The notes beneath the pieces were generated by a model, which worked only from the letters and a program-made list of their open reading frames with translations, did no database searches and was not told where the DNA came from. A DNA stretch of 24,000 nt from NCBI RefSeq assembly GCF_026898155.1, contig NZ_CP114029.1, forward strand, positions 5,349,072 through 5,373,071, in the 5' to 3' direction. The number at the start of each line of letters is the position of its first letter. Positions within the stretch are counted from its first letter, which is position 1. A program made the translations under genes and the position numbers. This document shows positions 1,036 through 17,923 of the stretch, piece by piece. This DNA comes from Jiella pelagia (lineage in GTDB: Bacteria > Pseudomonadota > Alphaproteobacteria > Rhizobiales > Rhizobiaceae).

Positions 1036-1545
1036 ATGACGCACTCCCCGGACGCCGAGATCACCCTCACCGTCAACGGCGCGAGCCATCGCCTTGCCGT
1101 TCCCGCCACGGCGCCGCTCTTGGCTGTCCTGCGCAACGATCTTCACCTGAACGGCTCGAAATACGGCTGTGGCCTCGGCCAGTGCGGCGCCTGCACCGTC
1201 CTGATCGACGGCATCGCGGCGCGCGCCTGCACGATCCCGGCGGGTTCCGTCGCCGGCCGCAGCATCGTCACCCTCGAAGGCCTTTCCAAAGACGACAGGC
1301 TTGATCCGGTCCAAGAGGCCTTCGTCGCCGAACAGGCTGCCCAATGCGGCTACTGTCTGAACGGCATGATCATGGCGCTGAAGGCGCTGACTCTCCGCGA
1401 GGTCGCCCCGGACGAGGAGATGATCCGCGAGGCACTGCGCTACAATCTCTGCCGCTGCGGGACGCATCTGGAGATCCTCGCCGCCGCGCGGCGGGCCTGT
1501 GGTCTTTTGCCGGGCGGAGAACCGGCCCCGAGGCCGGCCCGATGA
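1036..1545 (+). CDS. (2Fe-2S)-binding small subunit of a molybdenum hydroxylase (IorA/NicA-like)
   Basis: 169 aa. Cys patterns of two 2Fe-2S clusters are present: CGLGQCGACTV...C and QCGYCLNG...CRCGTH. There is no twin-arginine signal. The stop overlaps the start of the next gene (ATGA at 1542-1545). Confidence 0.9.
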   Translation: MTHSPDAEITLTVNGASHRLAVPATAPLLAVLRNDLHLNGSKYGCGLGQCGACTVLIDGIAARACTIPAGSVAGRSIVTLEGLSKDDRLDPVQEAFVAEQAAQCGYCLNGMIMALKALTLREVAPDEEMIREALRYNLCRCGTHLEILAAARRACGLLPGGEPAPRPAR

Positions 1546-4500
1546 CGCAGGAGCGGGAGCCTGTTTCGACGGATGGCGGACTCGTCGTCGAGCGCATCTC
1601 TGCTGGCGGCTTCATGGAGACATTCCTCGTCATCCACGCCGACGGCCACGCCACCGGCTACAACGGCCATGTCGATCTCGGCACCGGCATCCGCACCGCC
1701 CTCGCCCAGATCGTCGCCGAGGAACTCGACGTCTCGGCCGATTCCGTCGCGATGGTGCTCGGCGACACCGCCCGCACGCCCGACCAGGGTCCGACGATCG
1801 CCAGCGAAACGATCCAGGTCGCGGCCGTCCCGCTGCGCCAGGCGGCAGCGACGGCACGGCGGGTTATCCTCGCCCGCGCCGCTGCGGTTCTCGACGTGTC
1901 GCCAGAAGAACTGCAGATCGACGACGGCCTCGTCTACGCGCCCGCCAGCAATCGCCGCCTCGGTTTCGGCGAACTTCTCGCCGGCGAGACGATCCGCGTG
2001 GCTCTCGACGAGAACGCCCCGGTCAAGGCGCCGGAGAGCTACCGGCTCGTCGGGACGTCACAGCCCCGCGTCGACATTCCGGACAAGGCGACCGGCCGTG
2101 CGATCTACATCCACGACGTCCGCGTGCCGGGCATGCTGCATGGCCGGGTCGTGCGCCCGCCCTATGCCGGGCGTGACAGCGGCGACTTCATCGGCAAGAG
2201 CCTGATCGCCGTCGACCGCGGCTCCGTCGCCGCGCTGCCGGGTTTCGTCGATCTCGTCGTCATCGGCGATTTTGTCGGCGTGATCTGCGAGCGCGAGGAA
2301 CAGGCGGCCGAAGCAGCCCGCCGGTTGAGGATCGAATGGACCGTCCCGCCGCCGCTGCCGGACATGGACGATCTCGCCGAAACACTGAAGAATCATCCCG
2401 GCGAGCCCCGAACCCTGTCGGAGAGCGGCGACGTCGACGCCGCCCTCGAAGGCGCAGCAAACCGGCTGACCAGGCGCTATGTCTGGCCCTATCAGATGCA
2501 TGGCTCGATCGGGCCTTCCTGTGCGGTGGCCGATTTTAGCGACGGCTTCCTGACGCTGTGGTCCGGCACCCAGAACCCCCACATGCTGCGCGGCAACCTT
2601 GCGACGCTTCTCCAGCTTCGGCCGGAATCGATCGATATCCGCCGACATGAGGCCGCCGGCTGCTACGGCCGCAACTGCGCCGACGACGTCAGCGCCGATG
2701 CCGCGCTCCTGTCCCGGGCCGTCGCCCGTCCCGTGCGGGTGCAACTTACCCGAGAGCAGGAGCACGCCTGGGAGCCGAAGGGCGCGGCGCAGCTGATCGA
2801 GATCGATGGTGGTCTTGGTGAGGACGGCGACCTCGCCGCCTACGACTTCCAGACCCGCTATCCCTCCAATCGCGGGCCCAACCTTGCTCTGCTTCTCACT
2901 GGCGCGATCCCGCCGGACCCGCAACCGTCCGACATGGGCGACCGCACCGCGATCCCGCCCTACCATTACGAGGCCGAGCGAATCCGCGTCCACGACATGG
3001 CGCCGATCGTCCGCGCCTCCTGGATGCGCGGCGTCTCGGCCATGCCGAATTGCTTCGCCCATGAGAGCTACATCGACGAGCTTGCCACCGAGGCCGGCGC
3101 CGATCCCGTCGACTTCCGGCTGAAGCACCTGAAGGACCCGCGCGCCGCCGAACTCGTGCGGGCGACGGCAGAGCGCGGCAACTGGGTCGAGCGCAGCGGG
3201 CCGCGACGCACGAGCGACGGCAGGGGCGACGGCGAGACGCTCTACGGCCAGGGCTTCGCCTATGCCGTCTATGTGCACGGGCCCTTTCCCGGCACGGCCG
3301 CCGCCCATGCCGCCTGGATCGCCGAGGTCGCGGTCGACAGGCGCACTGGCGAGGTGGCGCTGGAACGGGTCGTCGTCGGGCACGACGCCGGCATGATGAT
3401 CAATCCTGCCGGCGTCCAGCACCAGATCCACGGCAACGTCGTCCAGTCGGCGAGCCGGGTGCTGAAGGAAGAGGTGACGTTCCAGAACTCCACCGTCGAA
3501 AGCCGCGACTGGGGCAGTTATCCGATCGCCAACTTCCCGGAGGTGCCGGACGTCGACGTGTTGATGCTGCCCCGCCCGGCCGAGCCGCCGCTCGGCGTCG
3601 GCGAATCCGCCTCGGTGCCGAGCGCCGCGGCGATCGCCAATGCCATTTTCGACGCGACGGGCGTGCGGTTTCGCGAGCTGCCCTTCACGCCGGAGCGGAT
3701 CAAGGCCGGCCTCGATGCGGCGGCGGGGGTGGGCTCCGGTCCATCCAGGCTGAGCGAGGCTTCCCCCGAAGGGGCGAAACCCTCGGCCCCCGACCGCCCA
3801 AAGCTCTGGCGCCGGCTGGCAGCGCCGCTCGCCGCCGGCCTCGCGGCCACGATCGGCACCGCAGCCGTTGGCCTGACGCTGCGGGCGCCGATCGCCCCGG
3901 TCGCGCCGTCAAACCCGTCAGTCTATTCCGCCGAGACCCTCGAACGCGGCCGCATCCTCGCCGCCCTCGGCGACTGCGCCGTCTGCCACACCGCCCCCGG
4001 CAGCGCGACCAACGCCGGCGGGCGGGCGATCGAGACGCCCTTCGGCACGGTCTTCTCCACCAACATCACGCCGGACCCGGAGACCGGCATCGGCGGCTGG
4101 TCCTATCCGGCCTTCGCCCGGGCGATGCGCGAGGGCGTCTCCCGCGACGGCCGGCACCTTTATCCCGCCTTTCCCTATACGTCCTTCGCCAAGGCCACCG
4201 AGGCGGACCTCCAGGCGCTCTACGCCCATCTGATGGGGCAGCCGCCGGTGCGCGCCGAAACGCCGGTGACGGCCCTCGCCTTCCCGTTCAATATCCGCGC
4301 ATTGATGGCCGGCTGGAACACGCTGTTCCACAAGGCCCAGCCTTTCGCCCCCGACCCCGCACGGGGTGCTGCTTGGAACCGCGGCGCCTATCTCGTCGAA
4401 GGGCTCGGCCACTGCAGCGCCTGCCACTCGCCGCGCAATGCGCTTGGAGCGGAACAGCGCGGCGCAGCCCATCTTGCCGGCGGCCTCGTCGACGGCTGGC

Positions 4501-5126
4501 AGGCGCCGGCTCTCGGCAGGGCGAGCGACGCGCCGGTACCGTGGACCGAGGACGCGCTCTACGCCTATCTCAGGACCGGCCGTTCCGCCGAACATGGCGC
4601 CGCCGCCGGGCCGATGGCGCCCGTCGTCGCGTCCCTGGCAGAACTTTCCGACGAAGACATCCGCGCAATGGCGGTCTATCTTTCAGCCGATGGCGAGACT
4701 GCGCCGCGGACCGATGGCAGAGCGTTGGCGGAAAAGCTCGTTGCACAGAGCGAGGCGGACATCCGCCCGGCCCGCAGCCTCGGCGCCCGCCTCTATGACG
4801 GGGCCTGCTCCGTTTGCCACCGCGGCGAAGCGCAAGGCGTGCTGTTCAACGCTGGAACGCCGCTGGCCCTCACAACCGCCATTCATGCCGAGCGGCCGGA
4901 CAATCTGATCCAGGTGATTCTCACCGGCGTTGAGCCAGCGCAGAGCGGCGTGCACAGCGCCATGCCGGCCTTTTCCGAGACATTCACCGACCGGCAGATT
5001 ACCGAACTCGTGCGCTACCTCCGCAGCCAGTTCGCCCGTGACCGTCCCGCCTGGCGGGACGTCGAGACGACCGTGGCAAGCGTTCGCCATTCGAAGACCC
5101 GGCCTGCGCAGAGCAGCGGACAATAG
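1542..5126 (+). CDS. Molybdopterin-binding large subunit fused to a tri-haem cytochrome c domain (NicB-type architecture); substrate unknown
   Basis: The ATG at 1542 is in frame with the long ORF 1344-5126 and is translationally coupled to the upstream gene. Aa 1 to about 725 resemble an IorB/aldehyde-oxidase Moco subunit (GTGIRTALAQIVAEELDV, MHGSIGPSCAVA, GHDAGMMINPAGVQHQIHGNVVQ, EPPLGVGESASVP). A hydrophobic helix KLWRRLAAPLAAGLAATIGTAAVGLTL lies at about 3801-3881. Three CxxCH motifs are in frame: CAVCH 3975-3989, CSACH 4413-4427 and CSVCH 4806-4820. Confidence 0.85.
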   Translation: MTQEREPVSTDGGLVVERISAGGFMETFLVIHADGHATGYNGHVDLGTGIRTALAQIVAEELDVSADSVAMVLGDTARTPDQGPTIASETIQVAAVPLRQAAATARRVILARAAAVLDVSPEELQIDDGLVYAPASNRRLGFGELLAGETIRVALDENAPVKAPESYRLVGTSQPRVDIPDKATGRAIYIHDVRVPGMLHGRVVRPPYAGRDSGDFIGKSLIAVDRGSVAALPGFVDLVVIGDFVGVICEREEQAAEAARRLRIEWTVPPPLPDMDDLAETLKNHPGEPRTLSESGDVDAALEGAANRLTRRYVWPYQMHGSIGPSCAVADFSDGFLTLWSGTQNPHMLRGNLATLLQLRPESIDIRRHEAAGCYGRNCADDVSADAALLSRAVARPVRVQLTREQEHAWEPKGAAQLIEIDGGLGEDGDLAAYDFQTRYPSNRGPNLALLLTGAIPPDPQPSDMGDRTAIPPYHYEAERIRVHDMAPIVRASWMRGVSAMPNCFAHESYIDELATEAGADPVDFRLKHLKDPRAAELVRATAERGNWVERSGPRRTSDGRGDGETLYGQGFAYAVYVHGPFPGTAAAHAAWIAEVAVDRRTGEVALERVVVGHDAGMMINPAGVQHQIHGNVVQSASRVLKEEVTFQNSTVESRDWGSYPIANFPEVPDVDVLMLPRPAEPPLGVGESASVPSAAAIANAIFDATGVRFRELPFTPERIKAGLDAAAGVGSGPSRLSEASPEGAKPSAPDRPKLWRRLAAPLAAGLAATIGTAAVGLTLRAPIAPVAPSNPSVYSAETLERGRILAALGDCAVCHTAPGSATNAGGRAIETPFGTVFSTNITPDPETGIGGWSYPAFARAMREGVSRDGRHLYPAFPYTSFAKATEADLQALYAHLMGQPPVRAETPVTALAFPFNIRALMAGWNTLFHKAQPFAPDPARGAAWNRGAYLVEGLGHCSACHSPRNALGAEQRGAAHLAGGLVDGWQAPALGRASDAPVPWTEDALYAYLRTGRSAEHGAAAGPMAPVVASLAELSDEDIRAMAVYLSADGETAPRTDGRALAEKLVAQSEADIRPARSLGARLYDGACSVCHRGEAQGVLFNAGTPLALTTAIHAERPDNLIQVILTGVEPAQSGVHSAMPAFSETFTDRQITELVRYLRSQFARDRPAWRDVETTVASVRHSKTRPAQSSGQ

Positions 5127-5490
5127 GAATACTGCCGGATCGCCCTTCTAAGCAGATGCCGCCGGGGATCGGTTCGGAAGGGCGATGGTGTCCGCTTGCA
5201 AGAATGGTCGCAAAGCCCGGAGCTTCGTCATCCCGGCCTCCTAGCCAAAATCCATTTTTCGGCGTCGAAGTGGTCTTTCGCTACGAGAACGATTTGCTGG
5301 CAACGACCTGAGAAACGACGTCGCGGATTTGCAATGGCTCCCGGGTCAAGCACGGGATGGCAAAGCGGTGAGGCTTCCACACAGTCTGCAACGTCGATGC
5401 GCCGCCGTCTGCGCGGGTCGGGGACGTGATGTGTGAATGCGGCAGGGCCGTACGCCGCAAGCCTAATGACCGCTGCGCACCTTTGCCCGA

Positions 5491-6072
5491 TCAGATCTGC
5501 TCAAGCGTCCAGCTGACGATTTCGCCGGAAATCTGGTCGAACGCCCTGTTGAGCGCCGCGACATAGACGTCGCTGCCGGTACCGCTGACCGGAGAGGAGG
5601 CTGAGAATATCTGCGTCTGCCGGACGGTGCCGTTGCGGTCGTTGAGCGTCTTCACCGAAATGTCGATCCGCGCCGTCGCAGCGCCCGACGTGTCGATCTC
5701 GAAGCGGCGGATCTCAGTGATCAGTTGATAATCGATTGCCAGCCCCTGACCCGGCACGCCGACGGCGCCGATCTGGCCGGTGTTCTCGAAGGCCTGCAGC
5801 AGCCGCAGCTGCACCATGCGCGGCAGCCGATCGCTCCATTGGCTCTGGGCAAGATACTGAATGGCATAGGGAGAGGTCTTGACGACGATCTTTTCGCTAT
5901 CGAGCGTCTTGATCGCGGTCGGTTCGGGGATGAGCAACTGTGCGCGGCTGCTGCTCTGCACCGAAACGTTGGTCGGCGAGGCGATCTCGAACGTGTCCGG
6001 CGGCACAGAGCTGCAGCCGGCGAGGAGACCCGCCACGAGTGCGGCAATCATTGGTAGCTTCACGCCGGTCAT
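5491..6072 (-). CDS. ABC-type transport auxiliary lipoprotein (DUF330 / PqiC-like)
   Basis: 193 aa from the ATG at 6072. The lipoprotein signal MTGVKLPMIAALVAGLLAGC has the lipobox LAGC, and a purine-rich GAGGGGA lies upstream. Size, and position directly after the MCE gene, fit the auxiliary lipoprotein family. The ORF-track extension to 6315 is Arg/Gly-rich and looks non-coding. Confidence 0.75.
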   Translation of the reverse strand: MTGVKLPMIAALVAGLLAGCSSVPPDTFEIASPTNVSVQSSSRAQLLIPEPTAIKTLDSEKIVVKTSPYAIQYLAQSQWSDRLPRMVQLRLLQAFENTGQIGAVGVPGQGLAIDYQLITEIRRFEIDTSGAATARIDISVKTLNDRNGTVRQTQIFSASSPVSGTGSDVYVAALNRAFDQISGEIVSWTLEQI

Positions 6073-6331
6073 CGTCGCGGTCGTCCCCTCTTCCAGCGGC
6101 GCGCGGACAGCATCGCCCGTCATGCGCCTGGAAGCCCGCCGGTTCGGCAGGCTGCCCCGTTGCTTGCACCCGCAACCGAGCCTGTCAATTGCACCGAAGG
6201 CCGCGCCCCTGCGCGCGCCCACACAAACTTCCGCGGCGGGACGAGATTGCCACAAGACAGCCGTCCAACCCGGCGTTTGTCGCGGCCTCTTGGCCGCGTT
6301 CGAGCCCGGAGCCAAGGCGGCGTGACGGCGA

Positions 6332-9145
6332 CTAACGCCGCGTCCGCCCGTCGTACTGCTTCACGTCGTCGCCGCCATAAAGAATGCGGCTTGGGTTGGT
6401 GGAGAAGTCGGCGACCGCGTCGTCGATCCGGTCGACCGTCCGGGAGAGGCTGCGCATCAGCGACTGGAAGTCCTGCAGACCCTGGCTGGAGAAGCGCTGC
6501 AGGTTGGCCGAGATCGGCGTCACCTGCTCCTGGATCGACTGCGCCGCCCCGCGGACCGACTGCAGGGCGCCCGCGAGGTCGGAACCCAGCTGGGTGCCAT
6601 TGCCGGCTCCTGCGAAGACGCCGTCGATCGACGTCAACACGCCGTCGATCTTCGCCGATGCGGTTTTCAGGCTGTCGCTGGTCGCCTGGACGTTTTCGAT
6701 GATGCTGTCGATCTGCGGCCGCTTGGCGCCGATGTCGGTGGCGACGCCGGCGATCGAGTCTGCTGCCCGGGCGACGTTGTCCGTCGCCGCCGAGACGTTC
6801 TCCACCGCCTGGTTCACCTTGCCGGGGTCGATGCTGGCGAGCAGCGTGTCGAGCTGCGCGCGCGTCTCGGAAAAGCCCTTGACCGCGCCGTCAATGGTCA
6901 GGACGGCGGAATTGACCCGTTCGACGATCGACTGGATTTCCGGGGTCTTCTCGCGCACGGCGTCGGTGATCGCGCCGACATTGTCGATCGACTTGTTGAT
7001 CATCGCCGTATCGAGAGAATCGACCACGCCCTTGGCGCTGTCGAGAGTCGAGTTCAGCTTGGTCGAGGCCTGGCTGACATTGGTGCTGATCGGGCCGAGG
7101 CTGGCGAGCAGCTGGTCGATGGCGTCGACGCGCTGGGCAACCGTCGTGGTGATCTGGTTGACGTTCTGCGCCGAGTTGGCGAAGCCGCTGATCGCCGAAG
7201 AGATCGCCTCCTTCTGCTGGTTCACCGTCTCGCTCACCGACGCGACGTTGGCCGCGGCGGAGGAGAAGGAGTCCACCGCCGTCGCGACCTTTTCCGGGTC
7301 CACCGCCGCCACCACGCGGTCGGCGTTCTGCAGCGTCGTGTCGAGGCTGTTGGCGACGCGGTTGGCCGTCTCCGTCAGCGGCGCGATGTTGGCGATCGCC
7401 TGGTCGATGTCCTGGCGGCGATCCGCCACCGTCTTCGTCACCTGCTCGACATTGGTCACGGCGTTCGACGCGCCCTGCACAATGGTATCGATCGCTTCGG
7501 ACTGGTCGCTCAGCTTCTGGCTGAGTGCTGCGGCATTGGTCGCCGTCGTCGACGCCCCGTCGAGGGTCGTCTGCACCTTCGCCGGATCGATCGCCGCAAC
7601 GACCTGGCGGGCCGAGCCGAGGGTCTCGTTCAGCGACGTCGCAGCCTGGCCGACCTGGTCCGAGATCGGACCGAGATTGGCCAGCGCCTGGTCGATCTCG
7701 CCGGAGCGCTGCGCCACGGTGGTGGTCAGCCGGTTGACGTTCTGCGCCGAGTTGGCAAAGCCGCTGATCGCCGACGAAATCGCTTCCTTCTGCTGGTCCA
7801 CCGCCTCGGTCAACGAGGCGACGTTCGTCGCTGCAGCCGTAACCTGGTCGAGCGTCTGCGACACCTTGGCCGGATCCACCGCCGCGACCACACGGTCGGC
7901 ATTCTGCAGCGTCACGTCGAGGCGGTTGGCCACCCGGTTCGCGGTGTCGGAAAGCGGCGCGAGATTGGCGAGCGTCTGGTCGATTTCCTCGCGCCGGTCG
8001 GCAACGGCCTTGGTGACGGTTTCAACGTTGGCGACGGCGTTGGACGCGCCCTGAACGATGGTGTCGATCGCTTCGGACTGGTCGTTGAGCCTCTGGCTGA
8101 GGGCCGCGACATTCGTCGCCGTTTGCGACACGCCGTCGAGCGTCGTGGAGACCTTCGCGGGATCGACGGCGGCGATCACCTGATCAGCGCCTTGTAGCGT
8201 CGTGCCGAGTTGGGTGGCGACGCTCGTCGCGGTGTCGGCGAATGGGCCGAGGGCCCCGATGAAGCGGTCGATCCCGTCGGCATTCTGATTGATCACGTCA
8301 CCGATCTTGCCGACGCCGTTCGCCGCCGACTGAACCGAATCCATGACGCTGCCGATCCGCTCCGAGCCTTCTCGGACATTCGCAGTCACCTGCGTGACGT
8401 TGCCGACGATCTGGCCGATTTCGTCGGTGTCGACTGCGGCAAGGATGTCCTGCGCTTGCTGGATCGCGCTCGGCAAGGCGTCTGCGACGTTGCGTGCGCT
8501 GACGGTCAGCGCCGACAGGCTGTCGACGAAGGAATCGATGTTGTCGGTGTTGCGGGCCAGCGCGGCGGTGAAGGTCTCGACGTTCTCCGACGTCTTGGCG
8601 ACGTTGGCGACGGTGGTCTGAACGCCGGGGCCGGCATCCTTCACAATGCTCTCGAATTCGCCGAGGATCGTGTTCGCCCGGTCGGCGATGTCGCGGGCCG
8701 TCGCCAGGATGTCGGTGACGTCCGAGGGATTGGCGCGGATGACGGGAGTGACACCCTGCTGCCGGGCCTCGTCGATGAGATTTTCACCTGTGGGATCGCC
8801 GCCCTTCAGTTCGACGAAGGCATAGCCCGTCAGGCCCTGGAAGCCGATATTGGCCTGGGTGTTCTCCTTGATGGGGATTGTGGGATCCACCATCGTCGTG
8901 GCGATGACCACGCCGGGATTGTTGTTGTCGATCCTCAGCGCAGTCACCTGGCCGACCGGCAGGCCGTTGAACAGCACCTGGCTGCCCTGCTGCAGGCCGG
9001 TCACCGATCCTTCGATTCGCACGAGAAGCGGCACGCGGTTGTCACCGCTCGACGAGAACACGCTCCAATAGGTGAAGCCGACCGCAAGGGCGAGGACGAC
9101 GAGCGTGAAGATGCCGACGCGGACGTAATTGGCTCTGGTTTCCAT
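6332..9145 (-). CDS. MCE/MlaD-family protein, 937 aa, with a very long repeat-built helical C-terminal extension
   Basis: N-terminal TM helix (VRVGIFTLVVLALAVGFTYWSVF). One MCE domain (VRIEGSVTGLQQGSQVLFNGLPVGQVTAL...GFQGLTGYAFVELKGG). About 780 aa of Ala/Val/Thr/Gln/Asn/Asp-rich sequence follow, then the conserved tail FSTNPSRILYGG. The start ATG overlaps the stop of the upstream ATPase gene (TGATG at 9143-9147). Confidence 0.9.
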   Translation of the reverse strand: METRANYVRVGIFTLVVLALAVGFTYWSVFSSSGDNRVPLLVRIEGSVTGLQQGSQVLFNGLPVGQVTALRIDNNNPGVVIATTMVDPTIPIKENTQANIGFQGLTGYAFVELKGGDPTGENLIDEARQQGVTPVIRANPSDVTDILATARDIADRANTILGEFESIVKDAGPGVQTTVANVAKTSENVETFTAALARNTDNIDSFVDSLSALTVSARNVADALPSAIQQAQDILAAVDTDEIGQIVGNVTQVTANVREGSERIGSVMDSVQSAANGVGKIGDVINQNADGIDRFIGALGPFADTATSVATQLGTTLQGADQVIAAVDPAKVSTTLDGVSQTATNVAALSQRLNDQSEAIDTIVQGASNAVANVETVTKAVADRREEIDQTLANLAPLSDTANRVANRLDVTLQNADRVVAAVDPAKVSQTLDQVTAAATNVASLTEAVDQQKEAISSAISGFANSAQNVNRLTTTVAQRSGEIDQALANLGPISDQVGQAATSLNETLGSARQVVAAIDPAKVQTTLDGASTTATNAAALSQKLSDQSEAIDTIVQGASNAVTNVEQVTKTVADRRQDIDQAIANIAPLTETANRVANSLDTTLQNADRVVAAVDPEKVATAVDSFSSAAANVASVSETVNQQKEAISSAISGFANSAQNVNQITTTVAQRVDAIDQLLASLGPISTNVSQASTKLNSTLDSAKGVVDSLDTAMINKSIDNVGAITDAVREKTPEIQSIVERVNSAVLTIDGAVKGFSETRAQLDTLLASIDPGKVNQAVENVSAATDNVARAADSIAGVATDIGAKRPQIDSIIENVQATSDSLKTASAKIDGVLTSIDGVFAGAGNGTQLGSDLAGALQSVRGAAQSIQEQVTPISANLQRFSSQGLQDFQSLMRSLSRTVDRIDDAVADFSTNPSRILYGGDDVKQYDGRTRR
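6836..8269. repeat. In-frame tandem repeat inside the MCE gene: a 288-bp (96-aa) unit organised as two 576-bp super-repeats (7694-8269 and 7118-7693), plus one further degenerate unit
   Basis: The landmark IDxxLAxLxP recurs at aa 293/389/485/581/677, and AAVDPxKV recurs at aa 325/421/517/613; each pair is exactly 96 aa apart. DQSEAIDTIVQGASNAV occurs at aa 355 and 547, and QQKEAISSAISGFANSAQNVN at aa 451 and 643, both 192 aa apart. The 65-nt stretch 8037-8101 differs from 7461-7525 at 7 positions. Confidence 0.85.
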
Positions 9146-10050
9146 CAGGCGGCTCCATCGGAGGGCATCGGCTGCGCTGCGGTTCCATGGTCGGTGACGA
9201 CCGTGCGGGCGCGCTTGCCGTGGAAATAGGATCTCACCCAGGGGTGATCGGATTGCAGCATGGTCGACAACGGGCCCTCGATCAGCACCTTGCGGTCGCC
9301 GAGAACGGCGATGCGGTCGCAGGCCTGGAAGAGGCTGTCGAGGTCGTGCGTCACCATGTAGACGCTGAGGCCCAGCGTATCGCGCAGCGTCATGATCAGC
9401 TGGTCGAAATCGGCGGCGCCGATCGGGTCGAGACCGGACGTCGGCTCATCGAGGAAGACGATCTCCGGATCGAGGGCGAGCGCCCTGGCGAGGGCGGCGC
9501 GCTTGATCATGCCGCCGGAGAGTTCGGACGGGTACTTGTCCGCCGCGTCCGGGGCAAGGCCGACGAGATCGATCTTGAGTCGGGTCAATTCGCGCATCAG
9601 CTTCGGCGACAGATCGAGATATTCGCGCATCGGCACCTCGATGTTCTCGGCGACCGTCAGCGCCGAGAACAGCGCGCCCTGCTGGAACAGAACGCCCCAG
9701 CGGCGCTCGACCGACAGCTTCTCTCGCTCGCTCGCCTGGTGGTAGTCGATGCCGAAGACCTCGATCTTGCCGCCCTGCTTGGGATTGAGGCCGAGAATGG
9801 TGCGAAGCAGCACCGACTTTCCCGCGCCGGACGGACCGACGAAACCGAGGATCTCGCCGCGACGCACGTCGAGCGAGAGGTTTTCGAGGATCTTCTTGGC
9901 TCCAAAGGCGACGTTCACGCCGCGCGCACGGATCAGCACCTCGCCCTGTGCCTGCGCTTGGGCGGCGTTCGCCGCAGAGCCTCCGTTGAGAGCCGTTCCG
10001 TTCTGGGCCGCAGGGTCGTGTGCCACTGTCTCAGAGCCCCATCGAGGCAT
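9145..10050 (-). CDS. MlaF-like ABC transporter ATP-binding protein
   Basis: Walker A GPSGAGKSV, Q-loop GVLFQQGALF, signature LSGGMIKRAALARAL, Walker B IVFLDEPTSGLDP and H-loop MVTHDLDS are all present. The start is uncertain: ATG 10050 overlaps the permease 3' end, TTG 10062 and GTG 10026 are alternatives. The N-terminal roughly 40 aa are low complexity (AAQNGTALNGGSAANAAQAQAQ). Confidence 0.88.
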   Translation of the reverse strand: MPRWGSETVAHDPAAQNGTALNGGSAANAAQAQAQGEVLIRARGVNVAFGAKKILENLSLDVRRGEILGFVGPSGAGKSVLLRTILGLNPKQGGKIEVFGIDYHQASEREKLSVERRWGVLFQQGALFSALTVAENIEVPMREYLDLSPKLMRELTRLKIDLVGLAPDAADKYPSELSGGMIKRAALARALALDPEIVFLDEPTSGLDPIGAADFDQLIMTLRDTLGLSVYMVTHDLDSLFQACDRIAVLGDRKVLIEGPLSTMLQSDHPWVRSYFHGKRARTVVTDHGTAAQPMPSDGAA

Positions 10051-11219
10051 AGAAGATCGCAAACAGGCCGTCCATGACGATGACGAGGAAGATCGATTTT
10101 ACCACGGACGCGGTGACGCGAAGGCCGAGGCTTTCGGCGCTGCCGCCGACCTTCATCCCCTCCAGCGCCCCGACGACGCCGATGACGATTGCCATGAAGG
10201 GCGCCTTGATCACGCCGGAGAAGACCGTGAACAGGTCGACGCTGGTTTGAATACCCTGCAGGAAGTTGGCGAAAGAGATGTCGGAATAGAGCTTCAGCGT
10301 CAGCATGCCGCCGAGCAGCGCCGCAAGATTGGCAAGAACCGTCAGGAGCGGCAGCGCGATGGTCAGCGCCAGGAGGCGCGGAAACACCAGGACGCTGATC
10401 GGGTTGAGGCCGATGACATGTAGCGCGTCGATTTCCTCGCGCATCTTCATCGAGCCGATCTCGGCGGTGATGGCGCTTCCCGAACGGCCGGCGATCATGA
10501 TCGCGGCAAGAAGCACGCCGATCTCGCGCAGCACCAGGATGCCGACGAGATTGACGGCATAGACCTCGCCCCCGAAGCGCCGCAGCTGGAAGGCCCCCTG
10601 CTGGGCGATGATGCCGCCGATCAGGAAGGTGATCAGGACGATGATGGGGATCGCCTTCACGCCCATCTGGTCGAGCTGGTTGAAGACCGCGGCCGGGCGC
10701 CCTCGGGTGCGACCGGTCAGGCGATTGCCGGCGCCGTAGATCGCCCCGCCGAGGACGTTGAGGGCGGCCACCAATTCGTCTCGGACGGCGTAGACGCCGC
10801 TGCCGACCGCGTTGGGAAAGGCAATCAGCGGGTTCGGACGCGTCTTCTCGGCTGCGGGAACATCCTTGTCCATCGCCCCGCGAACAGCCTCAAACAGCGC
10901 CTCGTCGCGCTTTGACACGCCGGCGAGCCTCGACCTTGCGGCGCCCATTGTCGAGATCGCGCGACAGACGTTCGAGGACGAAGGCCCCGGCGGTGTCGAT
11001 TCGGCCAACATTCGAGCAATCCACGGTGATCCGCTCGCCGAGATCGGAACGGGCGGTTTCCGACAGAAGGCTCTCGATGTCGCCGACGGTGCGCGCCAGC
11101 CAGTCGCCGCTGGCGACAAGCCGAACCCCGCCATCCCGCTTCTCGCCTTCGAGAACAGGTTTGACGGCAGACAGGCGACCGCGCTCGGCGGCCTCGTCGG
11201 GCTTCACAGCCTCCAGCAT
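10031..11219 (-). pseudogene. MlaE-family permease with an N-terminal MlaB-like STAS domain, interrupted by a +1 frame break near 10925-10931 (real pseudogene or assembly indel)
   Basis: The ORF at 10890-11312 encodes a STAS-like segment (GGVRLVASGDWLARTVGDIESLL...ITVDCSNVGRIDTAGAFVLERLSRDL). The ORF at 10031-11134 in the next frame encodes LAGVSKRDEALFEAV... followed by the MlaE core (REIGVLLAAIMIAGRSGSAITAEIGSMKMREEIDAL). Skipping one nt in GTCGAGGCTCGCC (minus strand) joins them. The start is uncertain: ATG 11219 is preferred, ATG 11282 and TTG 11312 are alternatives. Confidence 0.8.
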
Positions 11220-12462: not shown

Positions 12463-14524
12463 TCAGATCGCCCCGATCTTCTCCCGCAGCCGTGCCTCGA
12501 CCTCCTCGCGCTGGCTTTTCAACGACGCGATCTCCCGATCGATCGCCCCGAGTTGGTCTTCCTGGTCACGCATCGCGTCGAGATACCTGTCGCGCAGATC
12601 CCCGGAATCCACGGCCTTGATGTTCTCGCGGATCCGATCCTGAGCGGCATAAATGTCCTGCTTCTGGCTGGTCAGAGTATCGATCTTGCGGTCGAGATCG
12701 GTCTTTTCGGCCTGGATCGCGGCAATCGCCTTCAACGCGGCCGAAAGCTCCGGATCGCCCGCCTGGCTGGAGAAGCGCAGGAGTTCGGACTGGCTGGCAT
12801 CGACCAGCGCAAAACCCTCGTCGCGCACGAAGCGGTAGGTGGCTTCGATGTCGCGGGTGCCGCCGGCCGGGATCACCGCCTCGAGCCGATAGGCGTCGGT
12901 GGTCTCGGCGACCCGGTCTTCCGAAATCAGCTGCCAGCCGGAAAGCTTCGGGTGATCGATGACGAGCTTGCGCTCCTCCGCCGCGGCATTTTCCGCCGTA
13001 TAGACCGTGTGGCGCTCCTGGATCGACTTGAAGCGGAGCACGCCGTCGACGACGCGCAGTTCGCTGATAAGCTCCTGTGGCTCTTCGGTGGTGTTCACCG
13101 TCACCTTGCGGTCGAGGGCGAACTGCACCTGCCGCTCCTGGCCCGCCGGCACCGGCAGAAGCGTCGAATCGCCGACATAGCCGGAGGCGTCGTAGACCGT
13201 GACGATCCCCGCCGGCAGGGCCGAGCCGGTCTCGTTGTCGAGCTGGACGGCGGCCGTCGGATGGATCTCGCCGCGCCCCGGCGTGAACACAGCGATCCGC
13301 TCGGCGGGCACATCCGCGTCGACCACCGGCACGGACAGCGTCGAGCCGGCATCGAGCGTCACCGGCTGCGGCAGCGGATAGGTGACGGAGACGTCGCCCT
13401 CGACCGCCTCGCCGACCTCGCTCGCCTCGCCGATCGAGAACTCGGCGGCCTCCGGCATGGGCGCGGCGGCCATCAGATTGTCGGCGAAAGCGGCGGCGCC
13501 GCTGACCGAGCGACTGGCCTTGGCACTCCGCGACGATGGGCTCGGCAGCGCTCCGCGGTCAGGTTCCGGAATCGATTGCCTGTCAACGAAGACAGGCACT
13601 TCCGGCCGTTCCTTGAAAAACGGGTCGAAGAGGTTCTGGCGCAGCGTCACCGGCGAGCCTGACGACAGCGCGACCTTCACGTCGTTCCAGTTCTCGCCGG
13701 TAGCGTTCTCGATCACCGCCCAGCTTTGCAGCCGGCCCTTGCCGTCCTTGCCGAGCACCAGACGGTGCGAGGACTTCCAGACGGGCGCTGCGACCACGTA
13801 GTCGAACTCGACGTTCCGCTCTCCCGTCCCGTCGACCTTCACCGAGACGAGGCGGCTGTCGTCGGACAGGCTGCGCGACAGCGACTGGACGGCCTTCTGC
13901 AATTCTTCGGCGGTCTTTTCGTCGAGGATCTCGACCGATGTGTCGGCGAAGACCGGCAGCGAACGGACCGAGCCGGTCTCGTCGAGGATCGCCACGATGG
14001 CGAGCGGCCTCTGCGCCTTCTCGGCACTATCGCCTGCAGGGGGCTGCGAGGTGCCGAGCACGGTTCCGGTCACCGAGCGGTCGCCCTCGATGCGCACCCG
14101 CGCGCCCTTCAGCTTGTTGAGGAGGAGCGGCAGCGAGATCGAGATCGGCCGGCGTGAACAAAGCGGCGCGCGACAGCTCCTGGGCATTGACCGAGCCTTC
14201 CAGCGTCACCTGCCCGACACCGCCACCCGGATTGCGCACGACGAGGCTCTTCAGGACGTCGTTGACCTGGTCGAGCGGCACCTCCATGCCGACCGTCGCA
14301 TCGCCTGAGACTTCGGCCGACCGGATGATCTCCGCGACGCCCCCCGAAAACAGCACGATCGAGCGGATGTCGCCGGTGCGCGTCGGCTCGGCGGAGGTCG
14401 CAACGGGCATATCCGCAGACTGGGCAGCCGGAGCGGCCGGATCGGACGTCTGAGCCCCGGCGAGCGCCGTGCTGGCCAGAAGCGCCGCGAAGGTGGCCGA
14501 GGCGATGAGATGGATGTTTCGCAT
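12463..14524 (-). pseudogene. Exported DUF4139-like protein with a C-terminal coiled coil, interrupted by a +1 frame break at about 14125-14155 (real pseudogene or assembly indel)
   Basis: The ORF at 14027-14542 gives the signal peptide MRNIHLIASATFAALLASTALAGA (ATG 14524, GGAGA upstream) and about 128 aa. The ORF at 12463-14187 in the next frame continues with LPLLLNKLKGARVRIEG... for about 560 aa and ends in a heptad-like region (DLDRKIDTLTSQKQDIYAAQDRIRENI...REIASLKSQREEVEARLREKI). The DUF4139 assignment is from memory of the family, not a search. Confidence 0.65.
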
Positions 14525-16828: not shown

Positions 16829-17923
16829 TCAGCCGCCGGCACGCTCCAACAGGCAGGCGTCGCCATAGGAATAGAACCGATACCCGGTGGCGATCGCATG
16901 GGCGTAGGCGGCCTGCATCGTGTCCAGGCCCGAAAAGGCCGAGACCAGCATGAACAGCGTCGAGCGCGGTAGGTGGAAATTGGTCAGAAGCCGGTCGACG
17001 GCCCGGAAACGATAGCCCGGCGTGATGAAAATGTCGGTCGGCCCGGAAAACGGACGGATCACGCCGTCCTCGCCCGTGGCGCTTTCGAGGAGCCGCAGCG
17101 ACGTCGTTCCGACGGCGACGATCCGGCCGCCCTCGCGCCGCACGGCATTCAGCCGCTCGGCCGTCGCCTCGTCTACATGGCCGATCTCGGCATGCATCCT
17201 GTGGGCGCCGGTATCCTCCGCCTTCACTGGCAGGAAGGTGCCCGCCCCGACATGCAGCGTCAGGAAGGCCGTGCGGACGCCGCGCGAGGCAAACCGCTCT
17301 ATCAGCTCCGGCGTGAAGTGCAGCCCCGCGGTCGGGGCCGCGACGGCACCGCTCTCTTTGGCGAAGATCGTCTGATAGTCGTGCCTGTCGGCCTCGTCCT
17401 CCGGCCGCTTCGAGGCGATGTAGGGCGGCAGCGGGATGTGGCCGACGGCGGCGATCGCCTCGTCCAGCGCCGGTCCCGAGAGCTCGAAGCAGAGCGTCGC
17501 CTCGCCGCCCTCGCCGCGCTCTTCCACGACGCCGACGAGGCTCGCCATCGCGCAAGCCGTCTCCCGCTCGGCGCCGAAGACGATCCGATCGCCGACCCTG
17601 ACCCGCTTGGCCGGTCTGACGAAGGCCTTCCACCGTTCGGGCGAAAGCCGCATGTGCAGCGTCGCCTCGATCCGCGCGACGCCCTCGCCGTCGGCTGCGC
17701 CCTCGCGGCGACGCAAGCCGGAAAGCCGCGCCGGAATCACCTTGGTGTCGTTGAACACAAGCACGTCGCCGGGCTGAAGCATCTCCGGCAGGTCGCGGAC
17801 GTGGCGATCCGCCAACCCGCCGCCATCCCCAACGTGCAAAAGCCGCGCCGCTTCACGCGGCACGGCCGGCCGGAGGGCGATGCGCTCCTCCGGCAGTTCG
17901 AAATCGAAGAGATCGACGCGCAT
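16829..17923 (-). CDS. queA: S-adenosylmethionine:tRNA ribosyltransferase-isomerase
   Basis: 364 aa from the ATG at 17923. Motifs: [48 protein letters not shown]...[31 protein letters not shown] and [12 protein letters not shown]. The ORF-track extension to 18118 was rejected. Confidence 0.93.

Follow-up and report, generated by a model that had tools for sequence, protein, structure and literature searches.

Gene content of the operon

We analysed a stretch of 24,000 nucleotides from Jiella pelagia (contig NZ_CP114029.1, positions 5,349,072 to 5,373,071 of the forward strand), referred to below as the window, and consider here four co-directional minus-strand genes at 5491 to 11219, designated mpcE, mpcF, mpcD and mpcA. 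They encode a STAS-MlaE permease, a MlaF-like ATPase of the ATP-binding cassette (ABC) type, an MCE protein and a lipoprotein, and these four assignments, which an earlier note had made from the sequence alone, all have Pfam support. The locus very probably encodes an Aurantimonadaceae (Jiella-like) orthologue of Mpc (Mla-Pqi chimeric), a lipid transporter that spans the envelope, and what is new in it is the anatomy of the extension of MpcD, the MCE protein, which carries an array of 96-residue repeats.

The first gene, mpcE (11219-10031, minus), joins an N-terminal STAS (MlaB-like) domain to a MlaE permease (MlaE domain, E 1e-68 in Pfam), and is split by an extra base into a STAS piece (11219-10929) and a MlaE piece (10927-10031) that stand in different frames. 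With one base taken out, the STAS part scores above the Pfam cut-offs of both STAS_2 (33.1 bits vs 29.2) and STAS (32.3 vs 22.6), and the mpcE orthologues are single open reading frames (ORFs) that hold STAS and MlaE together. The ATPase gene mpcF (10050-9145, minus; ABC_tran E 3e-31) is 84-89% identical to its Jiella orthologues, with a start that is ambiguous between ATG 10050 and TTG 10062, and its stop overlaps the start of mpcD in the sequence TGATG, just as had been noticed before. The gene mpcD itself (9145-6332, minus) encodes 937 residues: a transmembrane (TM) anchor and one MCE domain, then an array of helical repeats and finally a tail at the C-terminus.

The last gene, mpcA (6072-5491, minus), encodes a PqiC-like outer-membrane lipoprotein of 193 residues with the signal MTGVKLPMIAALVAGLLAG-C and the lipobox MTGVKLPMIAALVAGLLAGC (LLAG-C). 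Its start is placed at ATG 6072 in preference to TTG 6315, with a Shine-Dalgarno-like AGAGGGGA upstream. The homology of MpcA is drawn from Pfam and from PDB relatives: it matches PF03886 (ABC_trans_aux/DUF330) with E 1e-29, which bears out the DUF330-like character proposed for it earlier, and its PDB matches, 2iqi (XCC0632, E 2e-21) and 13hr_A (E 8.5e-15), are both octameric lipoproteins. The mpcD stop and the mpcA start are separated by a spacer of 259 nucleotides (6073-6331). It is about 240 nucleotides long in Jiella too, while in Agrobacterium the two genes overlap. The scan with Rfam gave no family anywhere in the window, this spacer included, and no promoter-like or terminator-like site is present in 5100-6400.

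Identity of the system and relation to known transporters

The closest characterised relative is the Mpc operon of Brucella abortus (Lannoy et al., EMBO J 2025, PMC12436622). Its genes are mpcE, which encodes a STAS-MlaE fusion, mpcF, mpcD, whose product has a single MCE domain and a helical extension, and the PqiC-like mpcA. Residues 1-239 of the window MpcD align to residues 1-235 of B. abortus MpcD, taken from the source data of that paper, with 46.5% identity (E 7e-59), and residues 738-937 align to residues 151-331, including the tail NPxR..GG..QYDGR. The two systems thus agree in their four genes and in gene order, with the STAS-MlaE fusion, the single-MCE MpcD, the PqiC-like lipoprotein and a common tail of the form ..NPxR(I/L)(I/L)(F/Y)GG..QYDGR. 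However, Brucella MpcD has 331 residues and no detectable 96-residue unit, whereas the window protein has 937 residues and six to eight units, and functional data exist for Brucella Mpc, whereas the window system is known from its sequence. In B. abortus all four mpc deletion mutants are sensitive to deoxycholate, a pull-down of MpcA brings MpcE, MpcF and MpcD, and loss of Mpc alters the lipids of outer-membrane vesicles; an AlphaFold3 model gives a hexameric needle of about 250 Å capped by an MpcA octamer (PMC12436622).

The second relative with structural data is PA3211-PA3214 of Pseudomonas aeruginosa, for which cryo-electron microscopy (cryo-EM) has revealed an octameric lipoprotein ring around a hexameric needle (Giacometti et al., JBC 2026, PMC13631591). 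The rod is about 170 Å long and 35 Å thick, within a periplasmic subcomplex of about 230 Å overall. The MCE protein binds with its end in a groove of the ring, on the side that faces the outer membrane, and deleting the last 17 residues of the protein abolishes the binding (PMC13631591). From the molecule names, the chain counts and the MCE length of 312 residues, the PDB entries 13hq, 13hr and 13hs, which carry no citation link, are taken to be the deposits of this complex, with 13hr_A as its lipoprotein PA3214, and MpcD matches the 312-residue MCE protein of 13hr (chain I) with E 1e-27. PA3211-PA3214 has in common with the window the ABC engine, the single-MCE needle protein and the PqiC-like lipoprotein; it differs in that PA3213 has 312 residues, a rod of about 170 Å and a tail sequence unlike that of the window MpcD. 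The earlier note had proposed that a Mla engine with a Pqi-type partner makes a bridge rather than a shuttle, and the homology to Brucella Mpc and PA3211-PA3214 agrees with this, as a property already known for the class (PMC12436622, PMC13631591).

Other MCE systems share parts of this arrangement. E. coli MlaFEDB likewise places an MCE ring on an ABC transporter made of a MlaE permease and a MlaF ATPase with a STAS partner, but its MlaD has 183 residues, is without a needle, and depends on the soluble shuttle MlaC and on MlaA of the outer membrane. In E. coli PqiABC, as would be expected here, a PF03886 lipoprotein ring surrounds the C-terminal coiled-coil needle of the MCE protein; PqiB, however, has three MCE domains and its partner PqiA is not an ABC transporter, while the window has one MCE domain and an ABC engine. 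Membership in PqiABC was therefore rejected on the single MCE stretch and on the ABC permease and ATPase as operon partners. The mycobacterial Mce1 and Mce4 complexes (8fed and 8fee), which are the best Foldseek matches, also couple an ABC engine (YrbE/MceG) to a long helical needle, yet they are heterohexamers of six paralogous proteins with a C-terminal portal and without a PqiC-like lipoprotein; the window has a single mce gene, and membership in this group was likewise rejected, although the model TIGR00996 was passed. Finally, the long MlaD of Veillonella parvula (Grasekamp et al. 2023, PMC10665443) resembles MpcD as a single-MCE protein with a helical extension that is proposed to bridge the envelope. 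It has 419 residues (374 on average for the long form) and ends in an outer-membrane beta barrel (PMC10665443), whereas MpcD, with 937 residues, has no barrel and is accompanied by a lipoprotein cap instead.

We also considered that the genes belong to a canonical Mla shuttle, using MlaC and MlaA encoded elsewhere in the genome. The MlaE, MlaF and STAS parts do resemble MlaFEB, and Caulobacter carries both a MlaD-like and a MpcD-like protein (PMC12436622 source data). The family models point the other way: MpcD scores 35.5 against a cut-off of 135 for the MlaD equivalog TIGR04430, mpcE 129.6 against 315 for the MlaE exception model NF033619, and mpcF, whose best NCBIfam match is MlaF, 174.8 against the equivalog cut-off of 441 (NF008809). 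The broader models are passed, with 218.6 for mpcE on the MlaE family TIGR00056 (cut-off 212.2) and 159.6 for MpcD on the Mce paralog model TIGR00996 (cut-off 140.5), and the system is therefore a paralogue of Mla and not Mla itself. Moreover, the operon closes with a PqiC-like lipoprotein, no match to the MlaC or MlaA families is found among the scanned window ORFs of at least 150 residues, in line with the earlier remark that neither gene lies nearby, and B. abortus lives without MlaC (PMC12436622). A canonical Mla shuttle is thus very improbable, and we retain the assignment to Mpc.

Anatomy of MpcD

MpcD begins with one TM helix, which is followed by a single MlaD/MCE stretch at residues 35-120 (8786-9043, minus; PF02470 at residues 46-116). 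In Pfam it matches MlaD with E 9.5e-13 and Mce4_CUP1 with 65 bits, and AlphaFold2 (AF2) predicts the domain as a beta barrel with strands in residues 38-139 and a predicted local distance difference test (pLDDT) above 90. A Foldseek search with the model of the full protein returned MCE domains only, including Mce1 (8fed) and MlaD (6xbd, 5uw8). The protein ends in a tail at residues 917-937 (6335-6397, minus; NPSRILYGGDDVKQYDGRTRR), in which NPSRILYGG..VKQYDGRTRR is conserved, with P918 and G924 invariant in 74 homologues. Because deletion of the last 17 residues abolishes binding in the PA3213 and PqiB systems, the tail is presumed to be a docking peptide for the lipoprotein ring.

Between these parts lies the extension. 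It is poor in Pro (2.2%) and Gly (5.5%) over residues 126-905, and its hydrophobic residues recur with a period of 3.5-3.56 at a power of 552, compared with a shuffle maximum of 85. The earlier description of MpcD as one TM helix and one MCE domain followed by a Pro/Gly-poor, helix-favouring extension and a conserved tail is thus supported by Pfam, AF2, composition and periodicity. It held for the length and the helical tendency of the extension of about 780 residues, but it overlooked that the sequence is regularly repetitive. Self-BLAST and register alignment reveal six in-register units of 96 residues at residues 226-801 (6743-8470, minus), which start at residues 226, 322, 418, 514, 610 and 706 and follow the order N-A-B-A'-B'-C, and degenerate repeat-like helix flanks the array on both sides (residues ~142-225 and 802-916). 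Identity is 79% between A and A' and 70% between B and B'. In the DNA, the repeats recur every 288 and 576 nucleotides at 77% identity, outside the range or threshold of Tandem Repeats Finder, which missed them. For the duplicated units the synonymous divergence (dS) is 0.5-0.8 and the ratio of nonsynonymous to synonymous divergence (dN/dS) is 0.15 and 0.47; therefore the duplication is old and the copies are under purifying selection.

The register within a unit was examined in 156 distinct homologue units. From position ~18 to 95 the core hydrophobic positions are spaced as heptads, in alternating steps of 3 and 4 without a break, and the register slips once per unit, near a D-P motif at positions 7-8, so that each unit amounts to about 12-13 continuous heptads and one discontinuity. 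The sole frequent helix-breaker within the unit is Pro76, present in 52% of the units, while Gly45 is not conserved across the family. The AF2 monomer of full-length MpcD, built on a 74-sequence alignment, has a pLDDT of 57.8 and mostly below 50 in the repeat region; it contains helices at residues 425-518 and 535-614 that stop at D-P motifs, and only its TM and MCE parts appear usable. A model of a two-unit fragment on a 22-row in-register alignment is predicted as all helix with inconsistent breaks (pLDDT 45.9). Low model confidence for the helical needle region was also reported by the authors for Brucella (PMC12436622) and Pseudomonas (PMC13631591). Matches of the repeats to coronavirus spike HR1, SMC, Rad50 and spectrin-type proteins were dismissed as generic coiled-coil composition. 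Opposite mpcD there are two antisense ORFs, 6384-8054 (plus, 556 residues) and 8210-9229 (plus, 339 residues), which are most likely by-products of the high G+C content and the repeat codon pattern and not genes.

A ladder of MpcD lengths in related genomes

The survey of orthologue lengths, which the earlier note had suggested, gives a ladder with steps of 96 residues. Homologues of MpcD are found mostly in Aurantimonadaceae (Jiella, Fulvimarina, Aurantimonas and Aureimonas) and in other Hyphomicrobiales, and among the genomes found, Jiella avicenniae and J. pacifica come closest, with 63-65% identity. That MpcD length varies among Hyphomicrobiales was stated by Lannoy et al. (PMC12436622). 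The lengths cluster at 555, 649, 745, 841 and 937 residues, and the repeat content tracks the length. Among unit pairs in succession, 80 of 91 are exactly 96 residues apart, and 72 of the 103 full-length relatives, which are not phylogenetically independent, fall within 8 residues of 457+96k. Typing of the units resolves the ladder as N-C for 555, N-B-C for 649, N-A-B-C for 745, N-A-B-B-C for 841 and N-A-B-A-B-C for the window protein, and therefore at least two different duplications have taken place among close relatives. In the window, the needle region of MpcD has grown by tandem duplication of 96-residue units.

The ladder is not confined to one genus. The syntenic operon beside a MR_MLE epimerase gene encodes an MpcD of 555 residues in Aureimonas, 745 and 841 in Jiella, 937 in the window and 1330 in Acuticoccus, the last from an Acuticoccus sp. 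locus (CP094828.1, 4001-7993 of locus L008) with a four-gene operon. Since the 555-residue Aureimonas gene and the 1330-residue Acuticoccus gene occupy the same epimerase-flanked operon, they represent a single orthologous locus whose needle gene varies widely. The order permease-ATPase-MCE-lipoprotein also recurs in Jiella, Agrobacterium, Aureimonas and Acuticoccus loci; among the Jiella and Agrobacterium loci the lipoprotein match is limited to the three Jiella loci L001-L003 and to L007. The precomputed Pfam list for the Aureimonas and Acuticoccus MpcD proteins includes Helical_needle (PF28544). An exhaustive search of representatives gives 237 clusters at E <=1e-30, and among the best 150 of them 12 have at least 900 residues, the longest 1620. 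The relatives of 1330 and up to 1620 residues mark the extreme end of the ladder and are the best material for the question of needle length.

Proposed mechanism

By analogy with the characterised relatives, two copies of MpcE (STAS-MlaE) and two of MpcF (MlaF-like) would form an ABC engine in the inner membrane. Six copies of MpcD would sit on it as an MCE ring, and their C-terminal helices would come together into a coiled-coil needle, hollow and lined with hydrophobic residues. The tip of this needle would pass through a ring of MpcA beneath the outer membrane, where the conserved MpcD tail would hold it, and lipids would travel in the needle lumen. The stoichiometry, the channel, the lipid transport and the way the needle length is accommodated we infer only by homology.

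Several points weigh against this picture. The gene mpcE is frame-broken in the given sequence, and a real break would leave the STAS domain truncated. The AF2 monomer models of the repeats are of low confidence (pLDDT 58 and 46), so that they do not demonstrate the needle fold. For Brucella Mpc, the published work leaves substrate and direction open (PMC12436622). Finally, a single-pass needle of MpcD would be far longer than a periplasm is wide. The frame break and the needle length are considered in the next two sections.

The frame break in mpcE

The break that the earlier note had seen in the permease gene is indeed present in the given sequence. It consists of a single-base insertion at 10928/10929, where the plus strand reads GAGCCTC and a DNA alignment with the Jiella loci L001-L003 implies one base fewer, and it falls inside the STAS domain. 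The extra base relative to three orthologues, in such a place, is what a real mutation that inactivates the operon would look like. However, two further conserved genes of the window are broken in the same manner. A livF-like branched-chain amino-acid ABC ATPase gene is interrupted near 591 (plus), running in frame 3 over ~320-595 (with the Walker A sequence GRNGAGKST) and in frame 1 over 598-1026; its break is one extra base in GGCGAGCCTCACC, where the residues LTVEENL need GAGCTC. The DUF4139 gene (minus, 12463-~14554) has an extra base near 14137, where the window reads CGATCTCGC and three Jiella orthologues read CGAT-TCGC, and as a result its ORF of 574 residues covers just the C-terminal portion of a protein that would have about 700-830 residues.

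The livF-like and mpcE breaks lie in an identical 11-nucleotide plus-strand context, CGGCGAGCCTC. The motif GAGCTC occurs once in the 24-kb window (at 17480), against 3-5 times per 14.5 kb in the Jiella loci, while GAGCCTC and GAGGCTC together occur 8 times in the window. This pattern may reflect a motif-specific error in base calling, such as one at a methylated site. At the DUF4139 break the orthologous site reads GATTC, which fits the pattern GANTC, the methylation motif of CcrM. Three single-base insertions in 24 kb, two of them in one context, together with the near-absence of GAGCTC, favour a systematic error of assembly or base calling over three pseudogenes. The other three mpc genes, including the 2.8-kb ORF of mpcD, are intact and conserved, which also speaks against an inactivated operon. 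Even if the mutation were real, MlaE alone and the STAS fragment, made as two products, might still function, as MlaE and MlaB do in E. coli. The mpc operon is thus probably intact and the mpcE break probably an assembly error; an operon inactivated by a real frameshift is unlikely.

Besides the livF-like ATPase, the MR_MLE epimerase and the DUF4139 protein, the neighbours of the operon in the window are a molybdenum hydroxylase, tgt, queA, a cyclophilin and gyrA. The ORF at 1539-5126 (plus) encodes an in-frame fusion of an IorB-like molybdopterin hydroxylase subunit with a multi-haem-type cytochrome c at the C-terminus, and is preceded by a 2Fe-2S subunit gene (1036-1545). The fusion is real and not an error, because it is a single ORF of 1220-1226 residues in J. 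avicenniae and J. pacifica too.

Needle length and its meaning

From the Pseudomonas complex (PMC13631591) we estimate that the rod grows by about 1.0-1.2 Å per helical residue. With about 775 helical residues, a single-pass needle of the window MpcD would thus be about 80-90 nm long, or three to four times a periplasm, and a simple perpendicular bridge does not explain it. The question is then how such a chain could be laid out, and two layouts have to be weighed.

One is a single-pass hexameric needle, broken into segments at the D-P discontinuities, that takes an oblique or curved course, its length being unmatched to the width of the envelope. The heptad register is continuous in each unit with one break per 96 residues, and the AF2 helices at residues 425-518 and 535-614 end just at D-P motifs, both of which agree with such joints. 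Unit number varies freely in close relatives (N-A-B-C, N-A-B-B-C and N-A-B-A-B-C), which implies a tolerance of length, and odd and even unit counts both occur, which strict up-down hairpins would forbid if the tail must reach the outer membrane. In addition, the needle of Pseudomonas bends in its cryo-EM map (PMC13631591), and Lannoy et al. propose different angles or periplasm widths (PMC12436622). On the other side, such a rod, with a thickness of about 3.5 nm and a length of about 90 nm, would still have to pass through the peptidoglycan, and the AF2 confidence is low. We regard this layout as a possibility that falls somewhat short of even chances. The other is that units or groups of units fold back as hairpins or as three-helix, spectrin-like bundles, such that extra units thicken or decorate a needle of near-constant length. 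The earlier note had argued in this sense from the width of the periplasm. The unit has possible breaks at G45 and P76, the latter at the position where about half of the units carry Pro, and some homologues give faint matches of the Spectrin, Apolipoprotein and MCPsignal type. The AF2 fragment model breaks at residues 47-52 and 170, and an AlphaFold3 run of the whole complex folded the Brucella helices over themselves (PMC12436622). Against folding back, the a/d pattern passes positions 45 and 76 without a phase shift, Gly45 lacks conservation in the family, neither AF2 model contains a confident intrachain bundle, and if one unit is one pass, steps of a single unit would flip the end at which the tail exits. 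If anything, the continuity of the heptads and the free variation of unit number argue against a simple stack of hairpins. We therefore place the candidate segmented, curved or oblique needle slightly above the fold-back models, themselves a rather doubtful alternative.

As for novelty, the class of system has already been published, through Brucella genetics and partial Pseudomonas cryo-EM in 2025-2026. The earlier note had named characterised orthologues of this length and architecture as a refutation; the architecture is indeed already characterised, but no protein of 937 residues is. The locus mainly adds an annotated orthologue, and its value lies in a natural length series, in which one syntenic operon has needles that differ by whole 96-residue units. 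The step-wise change of needle length by 96 residues is a modest, testable addition. With this series one can ask whether MCE needles must match the periplasm, a question left open by Lannoy et al. (PMC12436622). Tentatively, needle length in the MpcD family may not be set by the width of the periplasm, and the long forms may be functional segmented conduits of several times the distance from inner to outer membrane, a proposal that we hold to be more doubtful than probable. If it is true, a new model of MCE needle layout would be forced, in which needles are oblique, curved, laterally running or multi-pass.

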